Below are positions 15,512-45,007 of a stretch of DNA of 64,000 bases, piece after piece. The translations under genes and the position numbers were made by a program. A model generated the notes under the pieces. It searched no databases, was not told where the DNA came from, and worked only from the letters and a program-made list of their open reading frames with translations. Source of the DNA: Candidatus Aminicenantes bacterium (GTDB taxonomy: Bacteria > Acidobacteriota > Aminicenantia > UBA2199); assembly GCA_963827565.1 (NCBI GenBank), contig CAWHBG010000002.1:970952-1034951 (forward strand), written 5' to 3'. Positions within the stretch are counted from its first letter, which is position 1; every line of letters starts with the position of its first letter.

Positions 15512-16255
15512 CTATTCCCTCCTCTTCATATGTCGGACATTCCCCCTGAATTCCGTCAAAATAAAATCCTGTTCTCCGATTCCGGCACTTTCAAGTATTT
15601 TTCTGCATTTTTTTATCAGCCGGTCGACCCGGTTGTATACACCTTTTTGAGAGATCCCGAGGGCACGCGAAATCTCAGAGGTACTCAAAGGATCTCTTCC
15701 GGGATCTGACGGGAATTTCATCCGTAGAAGAAGCCTCTCCTCACCGTTAAGAGAGGAGATCATTTCAGATATAACGCTCCTCATACTCTTCTCTCTGTCA
15801 TCCCAGATAACCACAAATTCAGGAATATTCTCTTTATCAGGTACAATGAATTCCCCAGCCTCTCCGGAACTGATTCCGTTCAGAACCGGTGAGCCATCCG
15901 TATCAGGGATCTTCACTGTACGTAAAGCCCCGTTCTCCCTTCCCGGCCGCTCCCGCCCCGCTCTCTCTCTGATCAGGTCTATTGCTGTCCGGGCAATTAT
16001 TGTGGTCAGATATGTGGATAATTTAGACCGCCCTTCAAATCTCCGGAGAATTCCGAAACTGTTTTCTGTCAATTTATCAATAACCCTGTTAAAAAGCCTG
16101 TCAGCCTCATTCTCAAGGTTCAGTTCACCTTTCAGAAATCCGCCCGATTTCATTTTCACGGTCTTGAGACATTGTTTATTGATAAAGTCTATGTTCGAGT
16201 TGAGCTGTTCTCTGAAGATAGAGTCATTATCTGAAATATTCAACACTTTTTTCAT
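15512..16255 (-). CDS. ECF-type sigma-70 family RNA polymerase sigma factor
   Basis: Region 2 (FEGRSKLSTYLTTIIARTAIDLIRE) and the region 4 HTH (LSTSEISRALGISQKGVYNRVDRLIKKCRKIL). The linker between the two regions is unusually long. Confidence 0.75.
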   Translation of the reverse strand: MKKVLNISDNDSIFREQLNSNIDFINKQCLKTVKMKSGGFLKGELNLENEADRLFNRVIDKLTENSFGILRRFEGRSKLSTYLTTIIARTAIDLIRERAGRERPGRENGALRTVKIPDTDGSPVLNGISSGEAGEFIVPDKENIPEFVVIWDDREKSMRSVISEMISSLNGEERLLLRMKFPSDPGRDPLSTSEISRALGISQKGVYNRVDRLIKKCRKILESAGIGEQDFILTEFRGNVRHMKRRE

Positions 16256-30700: not shown

Positions 30701-30942
30701 GAAAATGCTATCATTTTACCGTCAGGAGAGAATTTCGGCCTTACATCATTACCGATATGATCGGTCAGCCTCTCACTCCTTCCCCCTTTTACCGGTGCCT
30801 TCCATATATCACCTTTATAACTGAATACAACATATTGGGAATCCGGTGAAATATCCGGATATCTGAGCAGAGAAATATCCTCACCGGCAGTCAACAAAAA
30901 TGAGATTAATAAGATCTGAACTAAAAAGAATAATTTTTTCAT
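27790..30942 (-). CDS. Tricorn-like protease (TolB-type beta-propellers + PDZ + S41 peptidase), secreted
   Basis: 1050 aa with a signal peptide. The start LLRYPDISPDSQYVVFSYKGDIWKAPVKGG is typical of tricorn homologs. There are repeated WSPDG/SPDGK propeller blades and a C-terminal S41 region (DVRYNGGG). Confidence 0.8.
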   Translation of the reverse strand: MKKLFFLVQILLISFLLTAGEDISLLRYPDISPDSQYVVFSYKGDIWKAPVKGGRSERLTDHIGNDVRPKFSPDGKMIAFSSDRDGNYDVFIIPSEGGHAKQLTYRSSDDEVTGWKGDGSAVIFHSRRDLHFYYGNSGIFSVSVTGGMPLLLMGQMAMNGSLSKDGKFLAFNINRIPEFRQRYRGPANNDIWVYNLEKDRYFKLTEHPGNDKWPVFGQGGLYYVSDRDETFNLWKMERDGENKTQLTFHKGDQVRFPAISPDGKFVIYEYLNKLFRKDEGEDAYPLEISASTENKHDYIVKRSYTSEASEMRVSPDGNYYAFVIRGEIFVLKKDWERAKNISNSPYREANISWTSDSRGVLFDSDMNGNRDIFIAYPEGERDIYHSYKYKLKQLTGSEAEERYGVLSPDNKKIVYIKGNGNLVMKTIGEETENFLLKSWNVSDITWSPDGNYLSYSHMDNNFTSDVYIYDLKDSKAFNISRHPDDDYFPIWSPDGKFLYFISKRSNNNMDIWRLALRKEWFEMTPDEWQKMEEDNKKKKPAEKDGEKAPEVKTPPLPIEFNDIHLRVTHLTELLGDEFGLAVSPNSKTIAFTAGNDEGTGLYKIGWDGKEKKILINKGNEFGSLHFGDKGDDLFFIKSGMLNQMNIKKGKPKTIPFSAKLTIDMGAENIQKFEEAWRAMRDNFYDAKFHGTDWNGIYNKYRPWINEGLSRYEFDYIFTMILGELNGSHLRIKSRMEKERKKVETGDIGVFFDDNFKGPGFRVKTVLKDSPAYHKNSRLEEGDIITSINGEDAGTGANFYMFMEDKAGEAVMLQVLRGEDKLDVEIIPEKSNRNFIYNTWIGSNQKKVDELSGGKLAYVHIQSMGWPNLEKFERELHSIAYGKEGLVIDVRYNGGGWITDYLLQILMTKNHAVTIPRGGGKGYPHGRRSIFAYTKPIVVLINQMSYSNAEIFPWSIRTLKRGPIVGKQTFGAVISTGGTALIDGTWLRLPFRGWYVNDGTMTNMELNGCPPDYPVENLPGEERKGIDRQLNKGVEVLLDKVKDAEKSKIWN

Positions 30943-31044
30943 TCCACCACCTCTATTATAAGTTTAATGAAAAAATATAGCATATAAGTTTAAATTTGAA
31001 AATTTTTTTTGGAAATATGGAATTTAAAAACTAACAAAAAAGGC

Positions 31045-31072
31045 CGCCCCCGAAGGGACGGCCCATATGTTA
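31045..31072 (-). terminator. Rho-independent terminator of barrel gene copy 1
   Basis: The minus strand reads gggccgtccc-ttcg-ggggcggcc followed by tttttt. The sequence is identical at 37973..38002. Confidence 0.75.
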
Positions 31073-31094
31073 ATACCGTTTTTAGTTTACGATA

Positions 31095-33959
31095 TTAGAA
31101 GTTAACTCTGAATCCAAACTGGAATATCCCGGGATTAAGGATCCTCTGGATAGCACCAGTTGCTGATGTACCAAGTAACGGCTCAACACCTAATGTAATA
31201 GCATTATTTGTTACATTGTATGCATCTACAAAAAGTGTTGCTGTTACTGTGTCAGATACCTTAAAGGTCTTCTCAAGTCCCATGCTCAGCATCCAGAATG
31301 TAGGCAACCTGTCATCACCCATTTTTTTATTGGGTTGATACATGTTCGTCCAGCTGAGTCCGGAGCCTCTCTGAAATTCTTCATAGTAAGGGATGACATA
31401 ACCTTCTCTTGCCTGAAGAACAGCGGTTATATTTATTCCCCAGGGCAATTGATAAAGGCCTGACATTTTCAACATCCATCTGGAGTTAACAAAGATTCCC
31501 GTGTATCCTGATCCACCGGATTCCGGTGCCACAACCGCTTCGTTGAAAAAATCGTAGTTTGTCTTATCAAACCACTCTGAAGTATCTCTTTTTGCAATCC
31601 AATCCTGATAGGTGAATGATGCATCGAACATCCATTTGTTCGAGAATTTCTTTGTGAATACAAGCTGAAGTGCCAAATACTGGTTGTAGGTTTTCTCATA
31701 GTTGGCCATCTGTTGAGCAACACCGACTTCATATCTTTCATAATAAGGTTTGGTTGATCCGTCAGAGAATGTATAAATCCCCTTCTGATACCAGTTAGCA
31801 GCAGTTTCAAGACTGCCATCCGCCATGATATTCTTGTATCTGATCTGATTGTGTTTTTTCTTATAGAAAAGGGTAACATTCGTTGCAAAATCTTCTCCCA
31901 GCTCTTTCTCAAATGAAAGTGATAATTCATCAAGTATAGGTGAATTGAGATCTGACGCGTATGTGTTACTGCTTGTTACTCCATAAGGATTAACTGTATC
32001 TACATGCCAATAATACCAATCATCTGGATCTTCACTCCATTCACCAAGTTCAACAATACCATCGCCATCATCTGCCCAGTAAACATCAATTTCTCTCCAG
32101 TCAAGAGCCCAGGTATGATCAGCAATGGAGTTACCACTCTGTGATCCGTACCTTGCAGCAGATAATTTTATAACATTCTTCCCGTCACCGGTAATATCAT
32201 ATGAGAACGAAAGTCTTGGAGAAAACACTTCAAAAGCTGCATCTGCTTTAGCTCCAATAGCTGTTCTGTCACCCAGGTAAGCTGTGAATATGGGAACACC
32301 GTTAAGTGTTAATCCCGGAGCTGTTGCAGGATTGTGTGATCCTGATTCTTTATCATATCTGAGGCCGATGTTAGCTGTTAATTTTCCAAATGTTATTGTA
32401 TCGGACAGGTAGAATGACATCCTTTCAAATCCAACATCATACACGTAGTTGGGGTACCACCAGATCTCTCTGTAGTAACCCGGATCTCCTCTGTCCCATG
32501 AGTACAGAAACCTTTGGTTGGGATACAGTGACTGAGATGTTGTATCCGCTGTGTAATAATCAACACCGAATCTGATCTCATGGTCACCGCCGAGTACTCC
32601 CTCAGCAAAATAGTTACCGCTGAGTGAAAGGTTCAATGTATTTCTGTTGGTGAAATAATCGTACATTCCGCCCTCTACATAGAATCCGGGCTGGGAATAA
32701 TAAGTCCAGTCATCACCCACCATTTTACCGTCTTCAATAACATTGGTAGGATTATTTGAAATCAGCTCAAATCCACCGTCTGTGTAAGCGAACTTTGCTG
32801 TTAACATCAGATTGCCCATGATGTGCTGCAGTGAACCGGTGTAAACCGCGCCCGGACCATCCTGGTTGTGGAGTGATTCCTGAACTGCTGCGCCCCATCT
32901 GGCACGACCCCACTTTTTCTTTGCATCATATGAATAGTGGAAATCACCACTGGTGTTACCCAATTGGAAATTTACCTTACCATAAGCTGATACCAGCCAT
33001 GTTGCATCCTCACCGCCTGTGATCTGTCTGGCGTGAATGTCCTGTACTCCCCATGATCCGAAGAACCACAATTTGTCCTTTACGATCGGGCCACCGAAGT
33101 TAACGCCATACTGATACAATCTGAAGATTCCGGGTGATACCAATCCTTGATCCAGAATAGATTGGGGAAGATCCTGACTCATTTCCCATGCTTCATCTTC
33201 AATATAAAGATGAAAGTCTCCACTATAATTATTACCTGCTCTCTTCGAAACGAAGTTCAGCTGTACTCCACCTGTCTGAGCTGTAATATCATTGCTGCCA
33301 AGTGTGATCTGAAGTTCTTCATATGCATTAACATTCAGATAAGCAGGAGCAGATCCGATCGCTGACGGGTCTGTCATGTTAGCGCCGTCAATGTTCCATG
33401 TTGTATCATCGGAATCTGATCCATGGCCATAAAATGATGACTGCTGACCTGATTCAGCTCCACCAACATCTTCCCTGTCCATCATCATACCTGGTACCAG
33501 GTTCATGACTGTCCATGGGTTTCTTGCTGTCGGAAGTGACTGCATCATTTCCTGTGATACATTAACTGATACTGTTGTCTTTCTTGTATCAATTACATTT
33601 GCCTCTCCTGTAACTTCTATAACTTCTTTTAACTGAGAGGTCTCCATCTGAAAGGTAAAGGTCTTGTTCTTACCAACGAACAGCCTTATCGCTTTCTGAA
33701 CTACTGTCTTGAACCCTTCGAGCTCAAGCTTTAATTCATAAATTCCCGGGGGATTTGAGAGAAATCTGAAATTCCCCTGTTCAGATGTAACTGTAACTGT
33801 CTTACCGATAACATCACCGGTCAGAGTTACTGCTACTCCGGGGATTGCTGATCCATCAGGCAGTACTACTGTACCGTAGATGTCAGCTGTTGCTCCCTGA
33901 GCGAATGCCAGTCCTGAAAGAACTGCAACCGCTACGAGCAGTGTTAAAAAATTTTTCAT
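31095..33959 (-). CDS. Oar-like outer-membrane barrel (carboxypeptidase-regulatory-like domain + TonB-dependent-receptor-type plug and barrel), copy 1
   Basis: 954 aa with a signal peptide (LSGLAFAQG). CarboxypepD_reg-like segment GTVVLPDGSAIPGVAVTLTG...GNFRF..PPGIYELK.E.EGF, a plug-like region, and a terminal aromatic FGFRVNF. AGGAGG lies before the ATG. Confidence 0.8.
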   Translation of the reverse strand: MKNFLTLLVAVAVLSGLAFAQGATADIYGTVVLPDGSAIPGVAVTLTGDVIGKTVTVTSEQGNFRFLSNPPGIYELKLELEGFKTVVQKAIRLFVGKNKTFTFQMETSQLKEVIEVTGEANVIDTRKTTVSVNVSQEMMQSLPTARNPWTVMNLVPGMMMDREDVGGAESGQQSSFYGHGSDSDDTTWNIDGANMTDPSAIGSAPAYLNVNAYEELQITLGSNDITAQTGGVQLNFVSKRAGNNYSGDFHLYIEDEAWEMSQDLPQSILDQGLVSPGIFRLYQYGVNFGGPIVKDKLWFFGSWGVQDIHARQITGGEDATWLVSAYGKVNFQLGNTSGDFHYSYDAKKKWGRARWGAAVQESLHNQDGPGAVYTGSLQHIMGNLMLTAKFAYTDGGFELISNNPTNVIEDGKMVGDDWTYYSQPGFYVEGGMYDYFTNRNTLNLSLSGNYFAEGVLGGDHEIRFGVDYYTADTTSQSLYPNQRFLYSWDRGDPGYYREIWWYPNYVYDVGFERMSFYLSDTITFGKLTANIGLRYDKESGSHNPATAPGLTLNGVPIFTAYLGDRTAIGAKADAAFEVFSPRLSFSYDITGDGKNVIKLSAARYGSQSGNSIADHTWALDWREIDVYWADDGDGIVELGEWSEDPDDWYYWHVDTVNPYGVTSSNTYASDLNSPILDELSLSFEKELGEDFATNVTLFYKKKHNQIRYKNIMADGSLETAANWYQKGIYTFSDGSTKPYYERYEVGVAQQMANYEKTYNQYLALQLVFTKKFSNKWMFDASFTYQDWIAKRDTSEWFDKTNYDFFNEAVVAPESGGSGYTGIFVNSRWMLKMSGLYQLPWGINITAVLQAREGYVIPYYEEFQRGSGLSWTNMYQPNKKMGDDRLPTFWMLSMGLEKTFKVSDTVTATLFVDAYNVTNNAITLGVEPLLGTSATGAIQRILNPGIFQFGFRVNF

Positions 33960-33990
33960 TTTAACCTCCTATTTAATCTGGAATTTAAGA

Positions 33991-34010
33991 AGCAATACCC
34001 TTTCCCAGGG
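33991..34010 (-). promoter_or_regulatory. Candidate -24/-12 (sigma-54-like) promoter of barrel copy 1
   Basis: The minus strand reads ctGGgaaagggtatTGCttc, with GG and GC in the canonical 12-nt register about 33 nt upstream of the ATG. A similar element sits at the same position in copy 2. Only a partial match to TGGCAC-N5-TTGCW. Confidence 0.3.
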
Positions 34011-34031
34011 GATCAAATGCTTACAATAACT

Positions 34032-34062
34032 GGGACAAAACGATTGTTTTCGGGGACAAACG
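34032..34062 (-). promoter_or_regulatory. Direct repeats CGTTT(T)GTCCC, two copies about 20 bp apart, upstream of barrel copy 1
   Basis: The minus strand reads cgtttgtcccc-gaaaacaat-cgttttgtccc. One copy of the same motif (ccgtttgtccc) occurs at 40972..40982 at the same distance from the copy 2 promoter-like element. Confidence 0.35.
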
Positions 34063-34206
34063 ACCTATTTATGACCACCAAATATATAAAAACGATTCCG
34101 GATATTAAGATATAAAATAAATTTTGTGGCTTTATTCATTTTTACGAACTATTAAATCCAATATTTTGATTAAAGCGCTGTTGATAAAAAGAAAGATCCG
34201 GTAATT

Positions 34207-34566
34207 TTAGAGAAACAGGTCAGGGCTTATCTCTTCTTCGTTCATATTAAGCATATCCAGGTTTAGAGAGACCTTTTTCCTGATCTTTCTCAGATTGTAT
34301 TTTTTGATCTTTTCACAAAGAGAAGTTTCTTTGATCCCCAGGATCCGTGACGCATTTTTTTGATTCCCGTTTGTCAGCCCGAGTGTAAAAAGAATTATCT
34401 TCCTCTCCAGATCACTTATAAAATGTTTAAGGGCAATGTTTTCCTGAGTTATATTCTTCTGAAGATATTCTCTCACCAGAACTTCGGAAAGATCATCCAG
34501 TCCGGATAGATCATTTGAATTATACGTATTATTAATTTTATTTGAAAGTATTTGACTGCTTTTCAT
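34207..34566 (-). CDS. Small Fis-type helix-turn-helix protein (no AAA+ or receiver domain), copy 1
   Basis: 119 aa. The C-terminal NGNQKNASRILGIKETSLCEKIKKYNL is a Fis/NtrC-C-terminal type HTH. The N-terminal ~60 aa have no recognisable domain. Confidence 0.6.
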   Translation of the reverse strand: MKSSQILSNKINNTYNSNDLSGLDDLSEVLVREYLQKNITQENIALKHFISDLERKIILFTLGLTNGNQKNASRILGIKETSLCEKIKKYNLRKIRKKVSLNLDMLNMNEEEISPDLFL

Positions 34567-34577
34567 ATTTTCTCTCC

Positions 34578-34904
34578 TTAATTAGCAAGAACCCTTTTTA
34601 AGTTATTCCTGAACTTCTTCCCCCATAACACTGTCACATCATCGCTCATTACGACAAAATAATTATAGTTCAGATCTGATTCAATCTTTTGAATCTTCTC
34701 TATATTAATAATCGTAGACCTGTTCACCCTGACAAACTTATCCGGATCCAGTTTTTTCTCAAACTCAGACAAAGTATTTCTTATCAGAAAAGAATTCTTC
34801 CCTTTATAAAGCCTCTGATAATTCCTCTCTGATTCGATCCTGTCAATATCCTCACATTTCAGGACGATGAATTTTCTACCAAGCTTTACCATTAAACGGT
34901 TCAT
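34578..34904 (-). CDS. Stand-alone LytTR DNA-binding domain protein (no receiver), copy 1
   Basis: 108 aa. The pattern I..IES..NY....K..SFLIR.TLSEFEKKL....F.RVNRS.I.NI..I is the LytTR domain signature. AGGAG lies upstream. Confidence 0.75.
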   Translation of the reverse strand: MNRLMVKLGRKFIVLKCEDIDRIESERNYQRLYKGKNSFLIRNTLSEFEKKLDPDKFVRVNRSTIINIEKIQKIESDLNYNYFVVMSDDVTVLWGKKFRNNLKRVLAN

Positions 34905-34965
34905 TTCCTTTTCTCCTAAATTAGCCTGCTATATATTAATACGATCAAAAATGAACAAAATTCTA

Positions 34966-34977
34966 TAACTTTGGTTA
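34966..34977. promoter_or_regulatory. Conserved imperfect palindrome TAACTTTGGTTA (site 1, copy 1)
   Basis: An identical 12-mer occurs at 41927..41938, in the equivalent divergent intergenic region of copy 2. Confidence 0.4.
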
Positions 34978-35016
34978 TTTATTCAAATTTGTGAATTTAG
35001 TAATACACAATTCGAC

Positions 35017-35034
35017 ATATGACTTTAGTCATAT
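35017..35034. promoter_or_regulatory. Perfect palindrome ATATGACT-TT-AGTCATAT (site 2, copy 1)
   Basis: 8-bp arms. The copy 2 counterpart, TGTTACT-TT-AGTAACA at 41981..41996, keeps dyad symmetry through paired substitutions. Confidence 0.45.
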
Positions 35035-35140
35035 TCGCAGACAATTCTCCACTTTCTTTCTTAAGTTTCGTATTAACATTCATGAAAGTGAATATTTGTG
35101 AAACATTTATGAAAATTTTTTCGTTTTAAACAATGTAGAT

Positions 35141-37909
35141 ATGAAGAACTTTATTATCATAATTGTGTTTATTATCGGGATAAGTGTATTCCCTGTGTAT
35201 TCAAATGATCTTATCAATTCATTATCATTCAACCATATTTCAAAAAAGGATGGATTATCAGATGATCTTGTTTTCTCGATATTTCAAGACAGCTATGGGT
35301 ATATATGGATAGGAACATCCAATGGCCTCAACAGGTATGACGGATACAATTTTAAAATATTTGTAACTAATCCAAAAGATCCTGAGTCAATAGCTCATAA
35401 CGTAGTTACCTGGATATGTGAAGATAATGACAAAAATATCTGGCTTGCAACTTATGGCGGAGGAGTTTCAAAATTTGACAGGAGAACCAACACTTTCAGG
35501 AATTATATGTCTTTTGACAAAACAAAAGAAAATAACGGTTTAATAGTAAATCATATCAATTTAGATTCAAAAAACAGGTTGTGGATATCTTCAAAAGGCG
35601 GAGGTCTCATTTTATTTATTCCCGGGACTCAAAAGGTAAAACGTTTCGGAAATAATCCGGTTAATTCAGACTCACTAAACGAAGACAATATCATGTCTAC
35701 TTTTGAAGATTCAAGCGGCAATATATGGATCGCAACCTGGGGAAGCGGTTTGTATAAATATTGTGAAGTGAGCAAAGAGTTTAAACAAATAATATCTGAT
35801 CCCTATACAGGAAATGATGTGCAATACAAATATATTCATTCGATCCTGGAAGATCCGGAAAAAAACCTCTGGCTCGGAACCGGCAAGACCGGACTTGTAA
35901 AATATATAAAAAAAACAGGCAGTTTCCAGAGTTTCGGTATAGAACAAGACAGAGTTGTGCATATAAGAAAAAAGAAAATAAGTACAATTTTTCATGACCC
36001 CGATAACGACAACCTCATATGGATCGGCACCGAGAACGGGCTCTATATTTACAGAATTGCAGAGGACAAGTTTATTGAATACAAAAAGGAGAACAGTGAA
36101 GCCGGGCTCTCTAATAATTATGTCTGGAGTATATTAAGAGACAGATCAGGACTATTATGGATAGGAACCATTGGAGGAGGACTAAATTTAGAGAAGAGAG
36201 GCAGTGAATTCTTTTCCCTGTTCGATAAAGTGGAACAAAAAGGGAATATATTTAATTCCCCAAACATATCAGCTGTTTACACTGACAAAAGAGATGCTTC
36301 AATATTATGGGTTGGTACATTGGGAAGTGGTTTACAAAAGGTAGATCTCCAATCCGGAAAATCAGAAATGGTGAGAATTTCAGTTCATAAGAACAATTTA
36401 ATTGCAGGAAAGAACATTACCCGCATTAATCCTGATCCTGACAATCCGGATATTTTATATATTGGGACAAATTCCGGACTCAGCAAATATAATATCAGGG
36501 AAAATCTTTTTGTAAGGCTGGAATCTCCGTTAGATGAATTGAGCAAGTTTAATTCAGCATTTATTTCTACTCTAAAAACCTCTGGTCCATCTCCAAGGTT
36601 ATTGTGGATAGGATCACTTGGCAGGGGACTGTATAAACTTGATCTTGATAAATATAACCTTTCAAACTATTTGCTCCAGAAGGATTTCAGGAATAATCCG
36701 GAGAGGAATAGAGTTTATACAATATCCCCTTCATTAACAGACAAAAACACATTATGGCTTGGAACAAATGAGGGCCTCACCCGATTTGCGATCCGTTCAG
36801 GGATATTTAAATTAATTTTTCCGAAAACAACAACTAAACCCGGAATAACCGCACCGGTTTTATCAATTTATGAATCTGAACATCAACCTGGAATCATATG
36901 GTGCGGTACAAGGAAAAATGGATTGATCAGGTTTGATACCAGCAGCAATTCTTTTAACAGATTAAGTATAAATAACGGATTGCCCGATAATTCTATTGTT
37001 TCCATAGTGGAAGAACCCCGGGGTACTTTATGGCTCGGGACATTAAAGGGACTCTCACGTTTTATTATCAGCACAGGTAAATTCAGGAATTTTGACAAGC
37101 GTGAAGGACTGAACAATTCGAGTTATAATCTTAATACATCCCATGTAAGCCATGACGGAATAGTATTCATAAGCGGTTCGAACGGAATAGATTGTTTTTC
37201 ACCGGAGAGGCTGAATACTAATATGCACATACCCCCTATTGTTATCACAGGGCTGAAAATTTTCGGTAGTTCAGAACTCCCGGGAATGGATCAGATCCTG
37301 AAAAATGATATTTCTTTAACAGATGAAATTACACTTCCGCACTATTACAATACATTGACTTTAAGTTTCGCCGCACTCGATTATACCTCCCCTAAAAAGA
37401 ACCAGTTTTCATGCAGGCTTGAATCTCTAAATAGTAACTGGACCTTTCTCGGAACAAAAAATAGTATAAATTACAGGGATCTGAAACCGGGAAAATATAC
37501 TTTCATTGTAAAAGGATCCAATAGCGACTCGATCTGGAATGAGACAGGCAGGAAACTGACCATAATAATAACTGGAACTTTAATCAGTTCATTCTGGTTC
37601 TGGATAATAATTGCTGTTATTGTTTTTTTCATGGTCTTTCTTTTAAGATACCTGGTCAGAAAATTTAAAAAGAACAGTATCCCTCCGGGAACAACTATTG
37701 AACAGCTAATTCGTGATGAGATAATTACTGAAAGAGAAAAAGAGATAATCACACTTATTCTGCAGGGAAAAAGCAATAAAGATATAGAGGATGAATTATT
37801 CATTTCACTCGGAACTGTCAAAAATCATCTCTATAACATTTATAAAAAACTTAATGTTAAAAGCCGGACACAACTGGTAAGTATTGTAAGATCTGAAGAA
37901 AAACCTTAA
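35141..37909 (+). CDS. Membrane-tethered one-component regulator: signal peptide, two-component-regulator beta-propeller repeats, Y_Y_Y domain, TM helix, LuxR/GerE HTH; copy 1
   Basis: 922 aa with repeated ...IW(I/L)GT..GL..(Y/F) propeller blades. Y_Y_Y region YRDLKPGKYTFIVKGSNSDSIWNE, TM helix FWFWIIIAVIVFFMVFLL, and C-terminal ITEREKEIITLILQGKSNKDIEDELFISLGTVKNHLYNIYKKLNVKSRTQLV. Confidence 0.8.
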   Translation: MKNFIIIIVFIIGISVFPVYSNDLINSLSFNHISKKDGLSDDLVFSIFQDSYGYIWIGTSNGLNRYDGYNFKIFVTNPKDPESIAHNVVTWICEDNDKNIWLATYGGGVSKFDRRTNTFRNYMSFDKTKENNGLIVNHINLDSKNRLWISSKGGGLILFIPGTQKVKRFGNNPVNSDSLNEDNIMSTFEDSSGNIWIATWGSGLYKYCEVSKEFKQIISDPYTGNDVQYKYIHSILEDPEKNLWLGTGKTGLVKYIKKTGSFQSFGIEQDRVVHIRKKKISTIFHDPDNDNLIWIGTENGLYIYRIAEDKFIEYKKENSEAGLSNNYVWSILRDRSGLLWIGTIGGGLNLEKRGSEFFSLFDKVEQKGNIFNSPNISAVYTDKRDASILWVGTLGSGLQKVDLQSGKSEMVRISVHKNNLIAGKNITRINPDPDNPDILYIGTNSGLSKYNIRENLFVRLESPLDELSKFNSAFISTLKTSGPSPRLLWIGSLGRGLYKLDLDKYNLSNYLLQKDFRNNPERNRVYTISPSLTDKNTLWLGTNEGLTRFAIRSGIFKLIFPKTTTKPGITAPVLSIYESEHQPGIIWCGTRKNGLIRFDTSSNSFNRLSINNGLPDNSIVSIVEEPRGTLWLGTLKGLSRFIISTGKFRNFDKREGLNNSSYNLNTSHVSHDGIVFISGSNGIDCFSPERLNTNMHIPPIVITGLKIFGSSELPGMDQILKNDISLTDEITLPHYYNTLTLSFAALDYTSPKKNQFSCRLESLNSNWTFLGTKNSINYRDLKPGKYTFIVKGSNSDSIWNETGRKLTIIITGTLISSFWFWIIIAVIVFFMVFLLRYLVRKFKKNSIPPGTTIEQLIRDEIITEREKEIITLILQGKSNKDIEDELFISLGTVKNHLYNIYKKLNVKSRTQLVSIVRSEEKP

Positions 37910-37972
37910 AGAATAATTGTTTACCACAGTTCCCGGAGAATCCCGTAAGCTTCTAAATATAATATTCATTAT

Positions 37973-38002
37973 AAAAAAAAGGCCGCCCCCGAAGGGACGG
38001 CC
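37973..38002 (-). terminator. Rho-independent terminator of barrel gene copy 2
   Basis: Same hairpin as 31045..31072, with an 8-nt U-tract on the minus strand. It marks the junction between the two cassette copies. Confidence 0.75.
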
Positions 38003-38033
38003 CATATGTTAATACCGTTTTTAGTTTACGATA

Positions 38034-40897
38034 TTAGAAGTTAACTCTGAATCCAAACTGGAATATCCCGGGATTAAGGATCCTCTGGATAGCACCAGTT
38101 GCTGATGTACCAAGTAACGGCTCAACACCTAATGTAATTGAATTATTGGTTACATTGTATGCATCTACAAAAAGTGTTGCTGTTACTGTGTCAGACACCT
38201 TAAAGGTCTTCTCAAGTCCCATGCTCAGCATCCAGAATGTAGGCAACCTGTCATCACCCATTTTTTTACCGGGTTGATACATGTTGGTCCAGCTGAGGCC
38301 GGAACCTCTCTGAAATTCTTCATAATATGGAATGACATAACCTTCTCTTGCCTGAAGAACACCGGTGATATTGATGCCCCAGGGAAGCTGATAAAGTCCT
38401 GACATCTTCAGCATCCATCTGGAGTTCACAAAGATACCGGTATATCCGGATCCTTCGGATTCCGGTGCCACAACGCCCTCATTGAAATAATCGTAGTTTG
38501 TCTGATCAAAAAACTCTGAAGAATCTCTTTTTGCAATCCAATCCTGATAAGTGAAAGATGCATCGAACATCCATTTGCTCGAGAATTTCTTTGTTAATAC
38601 AAACTGTACAGCCAGGTATTGGTTATAGGTTTTCTGATAGTTTGCCATCTGGGTAGCAACACCTACTTCATATCTTTCATAATAAGGTTTGCTTGATCCG
38701 TCAGAGAATGTAAAAGTCCCCTTCTGATACCAGTTAGCTGCAGTCTCAAGACTGCCGTCAGCCATGATGTTCCTGTACCAAAGCTGTTTGCTTTTCTTCT
38801 TATAGAAAAGTGTTACATTCGCGGCAAAATCAGCTCCCAGCTCTTTCTCAAATGAAAGTGATAATTCATCAAGTATAGGTGAATTGAGATCTGATGCGTA
38901 TGTGTTACTGCTTGTTACTCCATAAGGATTAACTGTATCTACATGCCACCACAACCAGGTTGATGGATCTTCATCCCACTCACCAAGTTCAACAATACCA
39001 TCGCCATCATCTGCCCAGTAAACATCAATTTCTCTCCAGGAAAGAGCCCATGTATGGGAAGCAATTGAGTTACCACTCTGTGATCCGTACCTTGCTGCTG
39101 AAAGCTTGATCACATTCTTACCGTCACCTGTAATATCATATGAGAACGAAAGTCTTGGAGAAAATACCTTAAAAGAACCATCTGCTTTAGCTGCAATAGC
39201 TGTTCTGTCACCCAGGTAAGCTGTGAATATGGGAACACCGTTAAGTGTTAATCCCGGAGCTGTAGCCCCATTATGTGAGCCTTGTTCCTGATCATATCTG
39301 AGTCCGATGTTGGCTGTTAATTTACCGAATGTTATTGTATCGGACAGATAGAATGACATCCTTTCGAATCCGACATCATACATATAGTTCGGATACCACC
39401 AGATCTCTCTGTAGTAACCCGGATCGGTTCTGTCCCATGAGTACAGAAACCTTTGGTTGGGATACAGTGACTGAGATGTTGTGTCCGCTGTGTAATAGTC
39501 AACACCGAATCTGATCTCATGGTCTCCGCCGAGTACTCCCTCAGCAAAATAGTTACCGCTGAGTGAAACGTTCAATGTGTTTCTGTTGGTGAAATAATCC
39601 TGCATTCCGCCCTCTACATAGAATCCGGGCTTAGAATAATAAGTCCAGTCATTACCGACCATTTTACCGTCTTCAATAACATTGGTAGGATCATTTGATC
39701 TCAGCTCAAATCCGCCGTCTGTATAAGCGAACTTGGCGGTTAACATCAGGTTGCCCATGATATGCTGCAATGAACCGGTCATAACAGATCCCGGGCCATC
39801 CTGGTTCCAGAGTGATTCCTGAACTGCAGCGCCCCAAATAGGCCTACCCCATTTTTTCTTTGCATCATATGAATAGTGGAAATCACCACTGGTATTACCC
39901 AATTGGAAATTTACCTTACCATAAGCTGATACCAGCCAGGATGCATCCTCGCCGCCTGTGATCTTCTGGCGTGAATGTCCTGTACTCCCCATGATCCGAA
40001 GAACCACAATTTGTCCTTTACGATCGGGCCACCGAAGTTAACGCCATACTGATACAATCTGAAGATTCCGGGTGATACCAATCCTTGATCCAGAATAGAT
40101 TGCGGAAGATCCTGACTCATTTCCCATGCTTCATCTTCAATATAAAGATGAAAGTCTCCACTATAATTATTACCTGCTCTCTTCGAAACGAAGTTCAGCT
40201 GTACACCACCTGTCTGAGCTGTAATATCATTGCTGCCAAGTGTGATCTGAAGTTCTTCATAAGCATTAACATTCAGATAAGCAGGAGCAGATCCGATCGC
40301 TGACGGGTCTGTCATGTTAGCGCCGTCAATGTTCCATGTTGTATCATCGGAATCTGATCCATGGCCATAAAATGATGACTGCTGACCTGATTCAGCTCCA
40401 CCAACGTCTTCCCTGTCCATCATCATACCTGGTACCAGGTTCATGACTGTCCATGGGTTTCTTGCTGTTGGAAGTGACTGCATCATTTCCTGTGATACAT
40501 TAACTGATACTGTTGTCTTTCTTGTATCAATTACATTCGCCTCTCCTGTAACTTCTATAACTTCTTTTAACTGAGAGGTTTCCATCTGAAAGGTAAAGGT
40601 CTTGTTCTTACCAACGAACAGCCTTATCGCTTTCTGAATTACTGTTTTGAACCCTTCGAGCTCAAGCTTTAATTCATAAATTCCCGGGGGATTTTGAAGG
40701 AATCTGAAATTCCCCTGTTCAGATGTAACTGTAACTGTCTTACCGATAACATCACCGGTTAAAGTTACTGCTACACCCGGGATTGCTGATCCATCAGGCA
40801 GTACTACTGTACCGTAGATGTCAGCTGTTGCTCCCTGAGCGAATGCCAGTCCTGAAAGAACTGCAACCGCTACGAGCAGTGTGAATAATTTTTTCAT
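38034..40897 (-). pseudogene. Oar-like outer-membrane barrel, copy 2, interrupted by a 1-nt deletion relative to copy 1
   Basis: ORFs 38034..40007 and 39911..40960 are colinear with copy 1. The span is 2864 nt against 2865 nt in copy 1. Copy 1 reads gtgatctgtctggcg and copy 2 reads gtgatcttctggcg, at about 39964. The real start is MKKLFTLLVAV (ATG at 40897, AGGAGG upstream). Confidence 0.8.
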
Positions 40898-40930
40898 ATA
40901 AACCTCCTTTAAGTTTATCAAATGTATAGT

Positions 40931-40982
40931 ATGCATAAACCTTTCCCGTAAGCAGATCAATTATTCTCAATGGGACAAACGG
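40931..40982 (-). promoter_or_regulatory. Copy 2 counterpart of the -24/-12-like element plus the CGTTTGTCCC motif
   Basis: The minus strand reads ccgtttgtccc (40972..40982), followed about 25 nt later by acGGgaaaggtttaTGCat (40931..40949). Spacing matches copy 1. Confidence 0.3.
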
Positions 40983-41161
40983 TAAAAATTCAGGGATAAA
41001 AAAACAAATAGTTTTACTGAAAACCCAATGCATGTTCAAAAACAAATCGCCAACATTCATCGTTTTGTATATATTCCAATATTCCGTATTTTTTAGATCG
41101 GTTATATGGATTTTCGGACTATATATTGATATTTGAAAAAATTAATCGTGAGTTTCTTTTA

Positions 41162-42110: not shown

Positions 42111-44883
42111 ATGAGAACTTTACTAATAAATATACTATTACTCTTTATGATATTTCCTTCATTTGCAGAGGAGATGAATATTGATCTCTCATTTAGTCAT
42201 ATCAATAAAGACGATGGATTATCAGATGATATGATATTTTCAATTTTCCAGGACAGTTCCGGATATATCTGGATCGGTACATCCAACGGCCTAAACAGAT
42301 ATGATGGATATAATATACAAAAAATTTTTTTTGAACCTGAGTCTCCCTCTTCTCTCCCTCACAATACTGTAACCTCGATCTGTGAGGACAATGAAAACAA
42401 TATCTGGATTGCTACATTCGGCGGTGGAATATCTCGTTTTGTTCCAGATACTAACAATTTCAAAAACTATACCTTCTCCAAACAGACAAGCGACCCCGAA
42501 AGCGCAAAAATGATAAACCATATTCAAACTGATTCAAAAAACAGATTGTGGGTCTCAACGAGGGGAGCCGGAGTATTTCTTTTTAATCTTAAAACAAATG
42601 AAATAAAGAACTTCAGCAATATCTCTTTCGGCATGAAAGAGGAAGTTTTAAGCAATGTTATGTCGACTTTTGAGGATTCTAACGGCATCATATGGATCGC
42701 TGCATGGGGTGGTGGCCTGGGAAAATACATCGAAGAGAATGGAATAATAAGAAAAACAGTTCCAAAGAAATCTATAGATACTCCAGGCAGGGGGAATCTC
42801 ATTCACACCATTTTTGAGGATGCCGAAAAAAATCTATGGCTCGGCACACGAGATCACGGAATTATCAGATTTAACAGGATATCAGGGAACTATCGAACTT
42901 TCGGTTTAGAAAAGAACCGGAAAGTAAGTATGATCGGAAAAAGTATTAATTATATTTTTTCAGATCCGGGAAATCACAATCTGATCTGGATAGGCACTGT
43001 TAACGGATTATATGTTTATAAGATCTTTGAAAATAAATTTATCAGTTACAAAAATAAAGACCTCCATTCAGGCCTTAGTAATAATTATATCTGGAGTATT
43101 ATAAGGGACAGATCAGGATTGTTGTGGACAGGAACAATCGGAGGCGGTGTTTTTTTAGAGAAAAGGATAAGAGATTATTTCGGAAGTTTCAATACAACCG
43201 GACCGGAAGGTTACAACCTCAGTTCAAATGTGATCGGATCACTATATTCAAATCAAAATGATTCCGAGAACCTCTGGGTAGGGACCATCGGCGGTGGACT
43301 GAACAGAATAAACCTGAAAACAGGTAAGATCAATTCATATATCTCAAATAACAGAGAGGTCAGTTCATTTACCCCCAGATATATTAATTCTATTATTTCA
43401 GATCCGGATTCTCCGGGTTTTATATTCCTTGGGACAAGTTCTGGATTGAATAAATTCGATATCATCCGGAACGACTTCATTAAGATAACATCATCCAGAA
43501 AAAAATTAGAAGGTTTTAATTCTGTTTTTATCTCAGATCTTATGTTGTCAGAATTTCATAAGGGTTATCTCTGGATCGGCACACATGGAGAAGGGCTTTT
43601 CAAGCTTAACCTGGATGATATGTCTCTTAAAAATTATATTTTCGAAAAAAAAATACGGAACAATTTGGAGAAGAACAGAGTGTATGTGATTAAGCAGTCC
43701 CTTTTAAAAGCAAATATTCTATGGACCGGAACAAACCTTGGACTTGGTAAATTTGATACCGAAAAAGGGACATTCCGGTTTTTTAAAATAATAAACACTG
43801 ATCAATCCGATGAAAAAACATTCGTTCAGTCCTTACATGAATCAGTAACCGAACCTGGAGATATTACGGATCGGAACATGGGGAAAAGGATTGTTCCGCT
43901 TTGATGAAAATAACGGAGCTGTCAGAAGGTTTACAGTAAATGAGGGACTCCCCAACGATTATATAGTTTCAATAGTTGAGGAACCTGTAGGACGTTTGTG
44001 GATCGGGACCCAGGCCGGACTTTCCAGTTATATTATAAAATCGGGGTTTTTCAGAAATTTTAATACAGATGAAGGGCTTCAGAACACCCTTTTCAGATTA
44101 AATGTTTCATTCAAGAACTCGGAAAAAACAATTTTTCTCGGTGGATCAAAGGGGATAGACTATTTCTCCCCGGACAAATTGAGTACGAATATGGTCAAGC
44201 CTCCTGTAGTACTTACAGGATTAAAAGTTTTCGGGAGTACAGAGTTGCCAGGTATGGATGAAATATTAAAAACTGATATTTCAGTGACTGAACAAATCGA
44301 ACTACCCTACAAATACAACACAATAACGATAAGTTTCTCAGCTCTGGATTTCACTTCAACCGGAAAGAATCAGTATGCCTGTAAGATTGAAGAACTTGAT
44401 AAAGAGTGGAAATATCTCGGCACTCAGAATTTTATATCCTACTCAAAACTAAAACCGGGGAAATATACTTTTAAGGTGAAAGGATCTAACAGCGATTCGG
44501 TCTGGAATGAGAAGGGAAGAACTTTAGGCATTATTATTCAGAGTTCTTTTACAAGAACTTTTCTGTATAAAATAATCTATGCCATAATTCTGATCTTCCT
44601 TATTTCCCTGATTTTGTATCTCTGGAGGAAATTGAGACAGATATCATTCTCTCCGGGGATGACCATAGAAAAGCTTATCAGAAAATTCGATATAACAGAG
44701 AGAGAGGCAGATGTAATAAAGTTGATTATTAATGGGAAAAGCAACAAAGAGATCGAAGAGGAATTGTTTATATCACTTGGAACTGTAAAAAATCATCTTT
44801 ATCACATTTACAGGAAACTAAACATCCATAGCAGAACTCAACTTATAAAACTTTTCCGGTCTGACAATCAAAAAGAGGATTGA
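42111..44883 (+). pseudogene. Propeller / Y_Y_Y / TM / LuxR-HTH regulator, copy 2, reading frame broken once
   Basis: ORFs 42057..43904 and 43891..44883 together are colinear with the 922-aa copy 1 protein. The likely start is MRTLLINILLLF (ATG at 42111). The span is 2773 nt, not a multiple of 3. The frame switch lies within 43849..43901 (...TEPGDI / LRIGTWGKGLFRFDENNG...). Confidence 0.75.
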
Positions 44884-45007
44884 TAAACTTATGGCCTCTG
44901 TAAAAGATCCAGGCAAAAACAAGACTGCAAATTTTCCGAAATATATTGAATTAAAATGAGTTTGATTTTATAATACGCTATTGATATAATTTTTTATCGG
45001 AGGAAAC

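Follow-up and report, generated by a model that had tools for sequence, protein, structure and literature searches.

Why should two neighbouring copies of a gene module carry almost identical transporters when the regulators beside them have diverged? The stretch of DNA analysed here (the window, 64,000 nt of contig CAWHBG010000002.1 from a Candidatus Aminicenantes bacterium) contains two such units in direct orientation, 6.94 kb apart. Each is composed of a gene for a TonB-dependent-transporter-like barrel, two genes for small proteins (HTH_8 and LytTR), and a divergent gene for a regulator with Reg_prop, Y_Y_Y and LuxR domains (table 1). A first-pass annotation, made by reading the sequence, had attributed the contrast to gene conversion rather than to purifying selection. 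We examined this proposal through the identity profile of the two units, their silent sites, and related loci in other genomes.

Organization of the two tandem units

Barrel A consists of a signal peptide, a CarboxypepD_reg domain, a plug, and a 22-strand TonB-dependent-transporter-like barrel. The best Foldseek matches of its AlphaFold2 model (pLDDT 86.4, pTM 0.83) were the TonB-dependent transporters FusA and YddB (E from 1e-31 to 1e-28), and the matches to FusA, YddB, PirA, and Fiu together spanned E values from 1e-31 to 1e-23. The hallmark of these transporters, an N-terminal plug within a 22-strand β-barrel, was thus recovered by Pfam, AlphaFold2, and Foldseek. A profile search against PDB sequences matched the N-terminal domain alone, and the barrel itself was placed by the fold search. 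Barrel A shares with FusA and YddB the domain order, the plug inside a 22-strand barrel, and the long extracellular loops, but it is only 13–14% identical in sequence to the solved transporters. In contrast to SusC/SusD pairs, the units have no adjacent SusD-like partner: no SusD family match was found beside either barrel, where the neighbors are the HTH_8, LytTR, and regulator genes and a gene for a tricorn-like protease. The window was also scanned for Rfam families and tRNAs, with no matches.

Table 1. Coordinates of the two units in the window.
Feature	Position	Strand	Remarks
3'UTR and intrinsic terminator of barrel A	31036..31094	−	Homogenised tract stops at 31036
Barrel gene A, intact, 954 aa	31095..33959	−	Pfam CarboxypepD_reg, Plug, OMP_b-brl_4
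3' high-identity tract of barrel A, last 252 nt of CDS (nt 2614–2865)	31095..31346	−	
Central tract of barrel A, CDS nt 1048–2613	31347..32912	−	Barrel strands and long predicted extracellular loops
5' high-identity tract of barrel A, CDS nt 16–1047	32913..33944	−	Aligned with 39852–40882 in B; covers N-terminal domain, plug, and first strands
First 15 nt of CDS A and paralog-specific upstream region	33945..34206	−	Not homogenised
HTH_8 (Fis-type) small protein A, 119 aa	34207..34566	−	Pfam
Stand-alone LytTR DNA-binding protein A, 108 aa	34578..34904	−	Pfam
Regulator A, 922 aa	35141..37909	+	Pfam Reg_prop β-propellers, Y_Y_Y domain, LuxR/GerE HTH; hydrophobic segment
3'UTR and terminator of barrel B	37975..38033	−	Between convergent regulator A and barrel B
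Barrel gene B, colinear with A, frame broken	38034..40897	−	
First 15 nt of CDS B and paralog-specific upstream region	40883..41161	−	
HTH_8 small protein B, 122 aa	41162..41530	−	Pfam
LytTR protein B, longest ORF 116 aa	41540..41890	−	Pfam; 108-aa form from 41866
Regulator B, split in two ORFs	42111..44883	+	Pfam; 1-nt insertion at ~43860

Two genes of unit B are interrupted. The insertion in regulator B lies in the context GGA[G]ATA; when the base is removed, a 923-aa protein is regained that is 79% identical to the intact unit B regulator of a second genome, L002, described below. The two barrel genes are colinear apart from one base, as first reported: the C at 33026 in A is absent between 39966 and 39965 in B (context CCAGA[C]AGATC, not a homopolymer). 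This deletion breaks the frame of barrel B at codon 311 and leaves ORFs of 349 and 657 aa, so that one of the two copies looks inactivated. A search for homopolymers and short tandem repeats in the barrel genes, frameshift site included, found none, and this absence of simple repeats speaks against the frameshift having arisen by phase variation.

The 3'UTR of barrel A comprises a 9-bp hairpin followed by an intrinsic terminator, whose 10-bp G+C stem is capped by a UUCG loop and precedes a U-run. This 3'UTR, which is also listed as terminator-like, has a predicted RNA folding energy of −29.7 kcal/mol (z = −5.25). Upstream of barrel A we identified a GG-N10-TGC element (33992–34007) and two GTCCC boxes 21 bp apart (34032–34036 and 34053–34057), motifs that are invariant in seven loci. 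The equivalent region of barrel B contains a GG-N10-TGC element (40933–40948) and two (G/A)TCCC boxes.

Extent and internal divergence of the putatively homogenised segment

Barrels A and B are 97.7% identical over CDS nt 16–1047, 89.0% over nt 1048–2613, and 97.6% over nt 2614–2865. The near-identity initially ascribed to the whole gene therefore holds for its 5' and 3' tracts and not for its center. In the 5' tract, 24 differences are scattered over 1,032 nt, which argues against a collapsed or copied assembly consensus. At the protein level, exactly five differences separate the first 310 residues (positions 3, 4, 5, 68, and 87), the number originally counted. The 3' end is likewise close to identical, with six differing sites in the last 252 nt of the CDS, and the adjoining 3'UTR and terminator (31036–31094 against 37975–38033) show no difference at all, identity stopping right past the T-run.

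The edges of this segment are sharp rather than gradual. At both ends (33945 and 31036), identity shifts within ~20 nt. In 100-nt windows it passes from 95–100% to 40–60% where the barrel CDS begins, and A and B are 40–60% identical over the upstream region and the initial 15 nt of the CDS. The first-pass annotation had located this collapse just upstream of the ATG. The drop itself is real, but the break lies 15 nt inside the coding sequence, the outermost 5' differences being at CDS nt 9, 12, and 15.

Silent sites reveal the same contrast. Between the barrels, dS is 0.08, 0.37, and 0.06 in the 5', central, and 3' tracts, respectively, with a dN/dS of ~0.17 in the center, whereas saturation is reached in the pairs of LytTR proteins (pS of 0.81), HTH_8 proteins (0.83), and large regulators (0.79). 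The synonymous divergence of the barrel genes is thus clearly unequal to that of the regulators. It is also heterogeneous along the gene: 83 of 450 comparable codons carry silent differences within codons 345–872 versus 17 of 395 outside, and the two-breakpoint maximum chi-square at silent sites (40.3) was matched by none of 500 permutations. As for sub-tracts within the center, the longest identical run is not significant (P = 0.12), and the sum of the top three runs gives P = 0.02. Amino-acid differences are enriched in the predicted extracellular loops (36 of 358 residues versus 19 of 351, P = 0.024).

Positional orthology of regulators and barrels

A syntenic locus with both units intact is present in L002 (GCA_942492175.1). 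Positional orthologs in the window and L002 share 94–95% protein identity for LytTR, 81–89% for HTH_8, and 74–79% for the regulator, against 73–75%, 59–66%, and ~50% between paralogs. Unit A is 95%, 89%, and 74% identical to its L002 ortholog for these three proteins and 75%, 66%, and 50% identical to its paralog B; LytTR and HTH_8 of unit B are 94% and 81% identical to those of L002 unit B. The 81 identical residues previously counted in the LytTR pair (~75%) and the impression that the large regulators are more diverged (50%) are both borne out. The barrels behave differently, with 94% protein identity within the window, 86% within L002, and ~65% in all four cross-genome comparisons. The barrel is therefore the fastest-evolving gene of the locus between species, at ~65% identity versus 95% for LytTR.

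Quartet-informative sites lead to the same distinction. Orthology is favored for the regulator (492:33:22), as well as by 42 sites in LytTR, 52 in HTH_8, and 39 in the upstream region (1:39:8). In each of the two genomes, the first 15 nt of the barrel CDSs are also still of the type, A or B, that orthology predicts. For the rest of the barrel, within-genome grouping prevails (467:17:9), in the 5' tract (130:1:0), the center (282:15:9), and the 3' tract (55:1:0). In the comparison of the two gene types that the first-pass annotation had called for, regulators thus group by position and barrels by genome. On this evidence, the regulators are ancient paralogs, and the window barrels were homogenised after the split from L002. 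A recent tandem duplication of the whole unit does not agree with regulators that are 50% identical, are saturated at silent sites, and have their own orthologs in L002.

Between the window and L002, the flanking genes show a dS of ~0.9–1.0, which is exceeded by the central tract of the barrels (1.65–1.9). Across the barrel segments, pS is 0.5–0.75 between species compared with 0.05–0.29 within the window. In L002, dS between the two barrels is 0.37, 0.90, and 0.82 for the 5', central, and 3' tracts, with saturated flanks. Judged by dS, the L002 pair may have been homogenised as well; the quartet fits homogenisation in one or both genomes. The 3'UTR and terminator are almost invariant between the window, both copies of L002, and a further locus, L005. 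Because of this conservation between species, the identity of the A and B terminators, which had been put forward as a sign of conversion, does not constitute independent evidence for it.

The barrel tree is discordant with the regulators between other genomes too. The L005 barrel is 86–89% identical to the L002 barrels (dS 0.4–1.0), whereas its regulator is only 62% identical, with saturated silent sites. At L008, the barrel lies beside a different type of regulator (LytTR 37–40% identical) and is yet 70–71% identical to the window barrels; for the L002 barrels this value is 65%. Exchange is therefore not confined to the two tandem copies. The L005 discordance, together with a central dS above that of the flanks, indicates that import of a foreign or third-paralog barrel has also occurred. 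Part of the A/B similarity could accordingly stem from parallel replacement instead of direct A–B conversion.

Four short-read contigs (L003, L004, L006, and L007) break off within the 5' part of the barrel CDS. For one organism, the distance is 142 nt at k = 127 and 156 nt at k = 141; for another, it is 292 nt at k = 141 and 278 nt in the remaining contig. Such ends would be expected if a second, near-identical copy began at CDS nt 16 (or ~152). When a collection of genome contigs that does not include the window genome was scanned with barrel A, a single distant relative, L001 (51% identical), was among the matches listed. A protein search with the concatenated LytTR and HTH_8 sequences gave two HTH_8 hits, without the window's own proteins, and yielded no orthologs. 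Another contig, that of P0026 and P0029, carries two barrels in a different gene context.

Two further barrels, P0001 and P0124+P0123, belong to the same 90% cluster as those of the window. Compared with this pair, copy A agrees in residue type with B at 66 sites and with P0001 at 21, and the two types are patchily distributed (23 runs versus 32.9 expected, P = 0.003). Over residues 6–344, copy A is no nearer to B than to P0124. P0124+P0123, located together with P0001 on another contig of 1.28 Mb, is 97.8% identical to copy B. We had regarded P0001 and P0124+P0123 as positional orthologs from a sister genome, which implied conversion from B to A. This interpretation was withdrawn: none of the eight neighborhood proteins looked up, housekeeping genes included, had a cluster-mate at ≥90% on that contig, and the regulator search found no A- or B-type regulator from it. 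That contig could come from elsewhere in the window genome or from an unrelated one. Judging from its residue pattern, copy A still appears to be a mosaic after this assumption is dropped.

Probable gene conversion, alternatives, and known systems

The dS contrast, the sharp edges, and the L002 phylogeny support the original preference for gene conversion over purifying selection. We consider it likely that interlocus gene conversion repeatedly overwrote the barrel gene within two ancient tandem regulator-plus-transporter modules. The data show the identity profile, the dS contrast, the sharp edges, the orthology of the flanks, and its loss in the barrel; from these we infer how recombination proceeded, in which direction DNA was transferred, and why the tracts end where they do. 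Repeated nonreciprocal homologous recombination between the copies would overwrite the barrel and leave the regulators and the promoter region of each barrel unaffected. The convertible segment would begin at CDS nt 16 and take in the terminator up to the final base of the U-run; past the ends of the segment, an identity of 40–60% would be too low for extension or resolution of a heteroduplex. Its ends would correspond to the conserved region coding for the N-terminal domain and plug and to the 3'UTR conserved across species. As both ends stay similar and can seed new events, the process would be self-sustaining. The mosaic probably reflects events of differing age, with a dS of 0.06–0.08 in the 5' 1 kb and 3' 0.25 kb and 0.37 in the center. 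All of them would postdate the split from L002 (flank dS ~0.9–1.0), and by far the A/B duplication, for which dS is saturated. Differences persisting mainly in predicted extracellular loops may indicate that conversions in these regions were rarer or took place longer ago, or that they were selected against. The frameshifted copy B could act as a silent donor.

There is some chance, though a small one, that the barrel is an exchangeable cassette, anchored by its 5' coding region and 3'UTR, that shuffles among regulator modules within and between genomes, frameshifted silent copies included. If so, the locus would represent a diversity-generating recombination system and not passive homogenisation. 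The surface loops of the transporter would diversify, for example to escape phages or bacteriocins or to change substrate range, and each chromosomal slot would retain its own sensory input.

Another proposal, which we find distinctly unlikely, is that a horizontally transferred or third-paralog barrel replaced both copies independently, with the conserved 5' coding region and the 3'UTR as anchors. The similarity of A and B would then reflect a shared foreign donor rather than direct conversion between them. This would account for the decoupling of barrels and regulators between genomes (L005 and L008), for the closeness of P0124+P0123 to copy B on a contig without neighborhood cluster-mates, and for the preservation of the 3'UTR across species. 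However, a single replacement with later conversion is more parsimonious than two independent events that share their end points, and the dS mosaic (0.06–0.37) and the patchiness of copy A require several exchanges between resident copies in any case. Moreover, a paralog that replaces a resident copy is itself an instance of gene conversion.

Gene conversion also accounts for the data better than a single recent duplication of the barrel alone that landed beside a pre-existing second regulator module, with no ongoing conversion. Such an event would explain why high identity covers precisely a single transcription unit (codon 6 through the terminator), but it predicts a uniform dS, in conflict with the roughly five-fold and significantly heterogeneous spread between segments. 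It is made highly improbable by L002, where barrels with the same flanks occupy both positions, which were therefore filled before the species split, and by the A or B type that the first 15 nt of each CDS still display in the two genomes.

Constraint (purifying selection, or codon bias in a highly expressed gene) or an assembler or polisher copying one repeat onto the other is scarcely credible. In its favor are the conservation of the N-terminal domain, plug, and 3'UTR across species, an apparent plateau of pS at ~0.5 in the 5' third even between distant genomes, and the susceptibility of repeats to polishing errors, with the copy B indel falling inside a near-identical tract. Against it, between-species silent divergence is far too high for constraint to explain the low values within the window, the tracts are 97.7% and not 100% identical, and the within-genome signal recurs in the 89%-identical center, in the independent L002 assembly, and in the contig breaks of four others.

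The process is already known from tuf and from the bab and hom genes of Helicobacter pylori, and the barrel pair is a clean new example of it. In H. pylori, outer-membrane paralogs at separate loci (babA/babB, homA/homB, and sabA/sabB) swap segments by RecA-type intragenomic gene conversion (PMC3960876). There too, within-strain similarity affects part of the gene only, while the rest and the flanks keep locus identity, and chimeric genes result (PMC3960876). The present genes differ in encoding TonB-dependent-transporter-like barrels and not Hop-family adhesins, in being arranged in tandem, each with its own set of three regulator genes, and in being homogenised at both gene ends and the 3'UTR and less so in the center. 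They are devoid of phase-variable repeats, and conversion is here deduced from sequence.

Wang and Chen (2018) described 26 prokaryotic genes under "recurrent concerted evolution," mostly in core complexes or pathways, and proposed dosage balance or functional uniformity as the rationale; in their text, "TonB" is absent and "outer membrane" occurs once (PMC6053082). As for tufA/tufB, within-species paralogs are closer to each other than to syntenic orthologs, and differing flanking genes mark the loci (PMC6053082). The evidence in that survey comes from more than one lineage (PMC6053082), and for the barrels it may do so as well. Unlike tufA/tufB, the barrel evolves faster between species than any other gene of its locus, and one copy seems inactive.

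The locus provides a clean natural case in which recombination acts on one gene within a module that has been duplicated. Its sensory and DNA-binding proteins, ~50–75% identical between units, track the species tree, whereas the transporter that they presumably control has been repeatedly overwritten and has lost its history. In this uncultured lineage, sequence does not suffice to sort transporter paralogs into orthologous groups, and trees built from barrels will be misleading; the locus is instead marked by its regulators or by the promoter and the initial 15 nt of the CDS. The homogenised 5' end of the barrel also breaks short-read assemblies at this point. With this pair, the TonB-dependent-transporter family joins the few prokaryotic genes for which concerted evolution has been documented, and the question arises as to why two differing regulatory inputs are maintained for near-identical transporters.

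Identity, silent-site divergence and coding capacity of the two units

Units A and B, each comprising a gene for a TonB-dependent-transporter-like outer-membrane protein (the barrel) and three regulatory genes, are arranged as direct tandem repeats at a distance of 6.94 kb. Regulator A combines Reg_prop propellers and a Y_Y_Y domain with a hydrophobic segment and a LuxR/GerE HTH. A type IV pilus operon precedes the tricorn-like S41 protease gene in the window, and unit B is followed by genes for a small OMP_b-brl protein, a DUF3147 protein, UDP-glucose dehydrogenase and GlmS.

Coordinates of the two units and of related features in the window and in loci of other assemblies
Feature	Locus	Coordinates	Strand	Remarks
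NtrC-type activator	window	9500-10858
Tricorn-like S41 protease	window	27790-30942		downstream of unit A
Tricorn-like S41 protease	L005	12609-15854		adjoins barrel unit
Barrel A	window	31095-33959	minus	954 aa
HTH_8 protein A	window	34207-34566	minus	119 aa
LytTR protein A, stand-alone	window	34578-34904	minus	108 aa
Regulator A	window	35141-37909	plus	922 aa; divergently transcribed
Barrel B	window	38034-40897		gene order as unit A
HTH_8 protein B	window	41162-41530		gene order as unit A
LytTR protein B	window	41540-41890		gene order as unit A
Regulator B	window	42111-44883		gene order as unit A
Barrel 3′UTR	window	31036-31094, 37975-38033
Barrel 3′UTR	L002	5840-5929, 12810-12899
Barrel 3′UTR	L005	4870-4964
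GG-N10-TGC element with (G/A)TCCC boxes	window	33992-34057, 40933-40996		upstream of barrel
500-aa gene	L002	19804-21306
500-aa gene	L003	4324-5826
500-aa gene	L008	7152-8657
LytTR + HTH_8 pairs, third and fourth type	L002	1725-5638		no adjoining barrel
LytTR + HTH_8 pair, third type	L008	9013-15650		ahead of barrel; regulator next, same strand

The first-pass annotation described the barrel genes as nearly identical and sharply bounded, next to diverged regulators, and proposed gene conversion between the barrels. Near-identity holds for the two ends of the gene (97.7% for nt 16-1047 and 97.6% for nt 2614-2865) but not for the central 1.57 kb (nt 1048-2613, 89.0%). In 100-nt windows, identity reaches 95-100% in the 5′ kilobase and 96-100% at the 3′ end, with 80-97% in between. 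As reported, the barrels are colinear but for one base (the C at 33026, missing between 39966 and 39965), their residues 1-310 differ at five positions, and their 3′ ends are almost the same, with six differing sites in the last 252 nt and none in the 59-nt 3′UTR; the LytTR proteins have 81 residues in common. The boundaries are indeed sharp: identity drops to 40-60% within one 100-nt window at either side, and, to the nucleotide, the homogenised segment is delimited by CDS nt 15/16 (33945/33944) and by the final base of the terminator T-run (31036).

Silent sites were expected to differ between barrels and regulators, and they do. Using Nei-Gojobori estimates, dS between the barrels is 0.08, 0.37 and 0.06 in the three segments (dN 0.01, 0.06 and 0.02), whereas pS is saturated for the LytTR (0.81), HTH_8 (0.83) and regulator (0.79) pairs. 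Silent differences affect 83 of 450 comparable codons in codons 345-872 against 17 of 395 elsewhere, and the two-breakpoint maximum chi-square is 40.3, the highest among 500 permutations being 28.6. This contrast and this heterogeneity cannot be explained by purifying selection on the protein, which had already been judged the poorer fit.

The barrel contains CarboxypepD_reg, Plug and OMP_b-brl_4 Pfam domains. The fold of its AlphaFold2 model (pLDDT 86.4, pTM 0.83) matches TonB-dependent transporters, the best being FusA (E 1e-31) and YddB (E 1e-28); a sequence search against the PDB matched the N-terminal domain only. FusA imports a protein substrate, and both FusA and YddB are paired with periplasmic proteases. 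Together with the protease gene neighboring the barrel unit, these folds hint, purely speculatively, at uptake of peptides or proteins. Strand numbers were assigned on the model, with long connections counted as extracellular loops. Among the 60 amino-acid differences between copies A and B (the barrels of units A and B), 36 occur in the 358 loop residues and 19 in the 351 residues of strands and short turns; the 125-residue plug has none, and the other 5 affect the signal peptide and N-terminal domain. The differences are enriched in the predicted loops (Fisher P = 0.024). At this resolution, the central dN/dS of about 0.17 does not point to positive selection.

Unit B looks as if it were decaying. 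Barrel B has a 1-nt deletion at 39965/39966 and regulator B a 1-nt insertion at about 43860; without the inserted base, the latter is a 923-aa protein 79% identical to its intact L002 ortholog. Neither indel lies in a homopolymer or simple repeat. Sequencing or polishing errors are also possible, and no further gene in the 64-kb window looks split; the one overlapping gene pair checked comprises a histidine kinase and an NtrC-type activator. The barrel deletion is at a distance of 14 nt from the border of the region with the highest identity (33027-33164, devoid of differences), as might be expected of a very recent mutation or of an error made in a repeat.

Comparison with a syntenic locus

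The closest regulator homolog led to L002, on a 1.13-Mb contig of GCA_942492175.1, which has the same two units and the same right-hand flank, with every gene intact. Between the window and L002, positional orthologs are more similar than paralogs for the LytTR protein (95% for A and 94% for B vs 73-75%), the HTH_8 protein (89% and 81% vs 59-66%) and the regulator (74% and 79% vs about 50%). Conversely, the barrels of the four cross-genome pairs are 65-66% identical, against 94% for the paralogs in the window and 86% in L002. The regulators therefore track position and the barrels group within each genome.

Informative sites in a four-way nucleotide alignment of units A and B of the window and L002, by the grouping supported
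Segment	Within-genome	Orthology	Cross
Regulator CDS	33	492	22
Regulator-LytTR spacer	3	47	1
LytTR	2	42	3
HTH_8	2	52	5
Barrel upstream region and first 15 nt	1	39	8
Barrel nt 16-1047	130	1	0
Barrel nt 1048-2613	282	15	9
Barrel nt 2614-stop	55	1	0

The change in history thus falls at the identity boundary. The duplication that gave A and B is far older than the window/L002 split. As dS between the window barrels (0.06-0.37) is below that of flanking genes between the two genomes (about 0.9-1.0), the window barrels were homogenised well after this split. The quartet counts fit homogenisation of one pair or of both, and the case for L002 rests on dS (0.37, 0.90 and 0.82 for its barrel pair, with saturated flanks). 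Differences between the L002 barrels cluster within roughly 75 nt of the CDS start. Window CDS nt 16-142 (33818-33944) is 97% (copy A) or 94% (copy B) identical to L002 barrel B (15619-15745); over these first 127 homogenised nt, similarity to L002 barrel B equals that between the window copies, despite the flank dS. From nt 143 on, L002 barrel B resembles L002 barrel A instead (141/150).

Barrel sequences, 3′ ends and modules in other genomes

Four independent short-read metagenome contigs with related units all end within the 5′ barrel CDS: L003 (1-142; assembler k = 127) and L004 (1-156; k = 141) after 15 + k nt, L006 (1-292; k = 141) after 151 + 141 nt and L007 (1-278) after 151 + 127 nt. 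From the behavior of de Bruijn contig ends, we infer that these genomes have a near-identical second copy starting at CDS nt 16 or nt 152. These contig ends also show that the barrel gene breaks assemblies. The promoter, 5′UTR and signal-peptide start are locus-specific in every case, L002 included.

The 90%-identity cluster of barrel A also holds P0001, a protein intact at 954 aa, and a split barrel (P0124 + P0123, broken at another codon, about 400), both on another contig of 1,277,211 bp. The split barrel is 97.8% identical to copy B, and P0001 is 88-90% identical to it and to the window barrels; P0001 and the split barrel differ at 69 loop positions and 21 in strands and turns. Copy A has B-type residues at 66 sites and P0001-type at 21, in 23 runs where 32.9 are expected (P = 0.003). 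This patchiness makes copy A a composite of two or more parental types. Conversion from B to A in the window lineage was considered and withdrawn. None of eight looked-up window neighborhood proteins, housekeeping ones included, has a cluster-mate at ≥90% on this 1.28-Mb contig, and the regulator homolog search returned no A- or B-type regulator from it. It may be part of the window genome or of an unrelated one, with horizontal transfer a possibility, and the outgroup test is compatible with each alternative.

The only unit in L005 (GCA_039714475.1) is of the A type. The regulator of this unit shares 62% of its residues with the L002 A regulator, silent sites being saturated, while the barrel reaches 86-89% identity to the two L002 barrels (dS 0.4-1.0). 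For the regulator, L002 is nearer to the window (pS 0.53) than to L005 (0.79); for the central barrel, L005 (0.56) is the nearer and the window (0.67) the more distant. L008 (GCA_054039435.1) has a single unit with another regulator type (LytTR 37-40% identical) and a barrel 70-71% identical to the window barrels, nearer to them than are the L002 barrels. Finally, the window and L002 have a central barrel dS of 1.65-1.9, above the flank dS. It follows from this discordance and excess that barrel sequence moves among modules, probably also among genomes. For the window pair, conversion directly between A and B explains the data best, though it does not account for everything.

The LytTR + HTH_8 pairs of further types in L002 and L008 indicate that the module is combinatorial across genomes. 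In L002, L003 and L008, a 500-aa gene without Pfam match separates the last regulator unit from the small OMP_b-brl gene; it is missing in L006, L007 and the window, where 124 nt (44884-45007) lie between regulator B and that gene.

The barrel 3′UTR consists of a 9-bp hairpin and a G+C-rich GGGCCGTCCCTTCGGGGGCGGCC terminator (-29.7 kcal/mol, z = -5.25), without Rfam match. It is almost invariant in both copies of the window, both of L002 and in L005, genomes whose flanking genes are at or past silent-site saturation; L005 has one change, from G-U to A-U in the first stem, and in L001 the sequence is different but the two-hairpin arrangement is the same. Either the element is itself constrained or it travels with the barrel, and its identity between A and B, put forward as a sign of gene conversion, is not independent evidence of a recent event. 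It may serve as a 3′ homology anchor. Upstream of the barrel gene, a GG-N10-TGC element is invariant in the seven loci examined, its spacing being that of a sigma-54 -24/-12 promoter; the barrel units encode no AAA+ activator, but the window has a gene for an NtrC-type activator at 9500-10858. All seven also have two (G/A)TCCC boxes spaced by 21 bp, as is typical of LytTR-type direct-repeat operators.

Mechanism and known systems

The data show the pattern, its limits and its timing with respect to the species split, whereas the enzymes involved, the donor copy and a possible part played by selection are inferred. The most likely process would be RecA-type homologous recombination between the direct repeats, resolved without crossover. 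Tracts could start anywhere within similar barrel sequence and would terminate with the homology itself, at the paralog-specific promoter region on one side and just past the terminator on the other. Since conversion keeps the copies similar, it could go on indefinitely; the regulators would long ago have fallen below the similarity needed.

The closest described systems are the Helicobacter pylori outer-membrane paralogs babA/babB, homA/homB and sabA/sabB, which show within-strain similarity in part of the gene and chimeras produced by intragenomic recombination (PMC3960876). The survey of Wang and Chen lists 26 genes, tuf among them, and its text does not contain the word "TonB" (PMC6053082). 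Our literature search found no paper joining gene conversion and concerted evolution with paralogous TonB-dependent genes. In the operational sense of the term, the barrel pair evolves in concert, and it is well supported as a further, tidy case of a known process, with a few unexplained extras.
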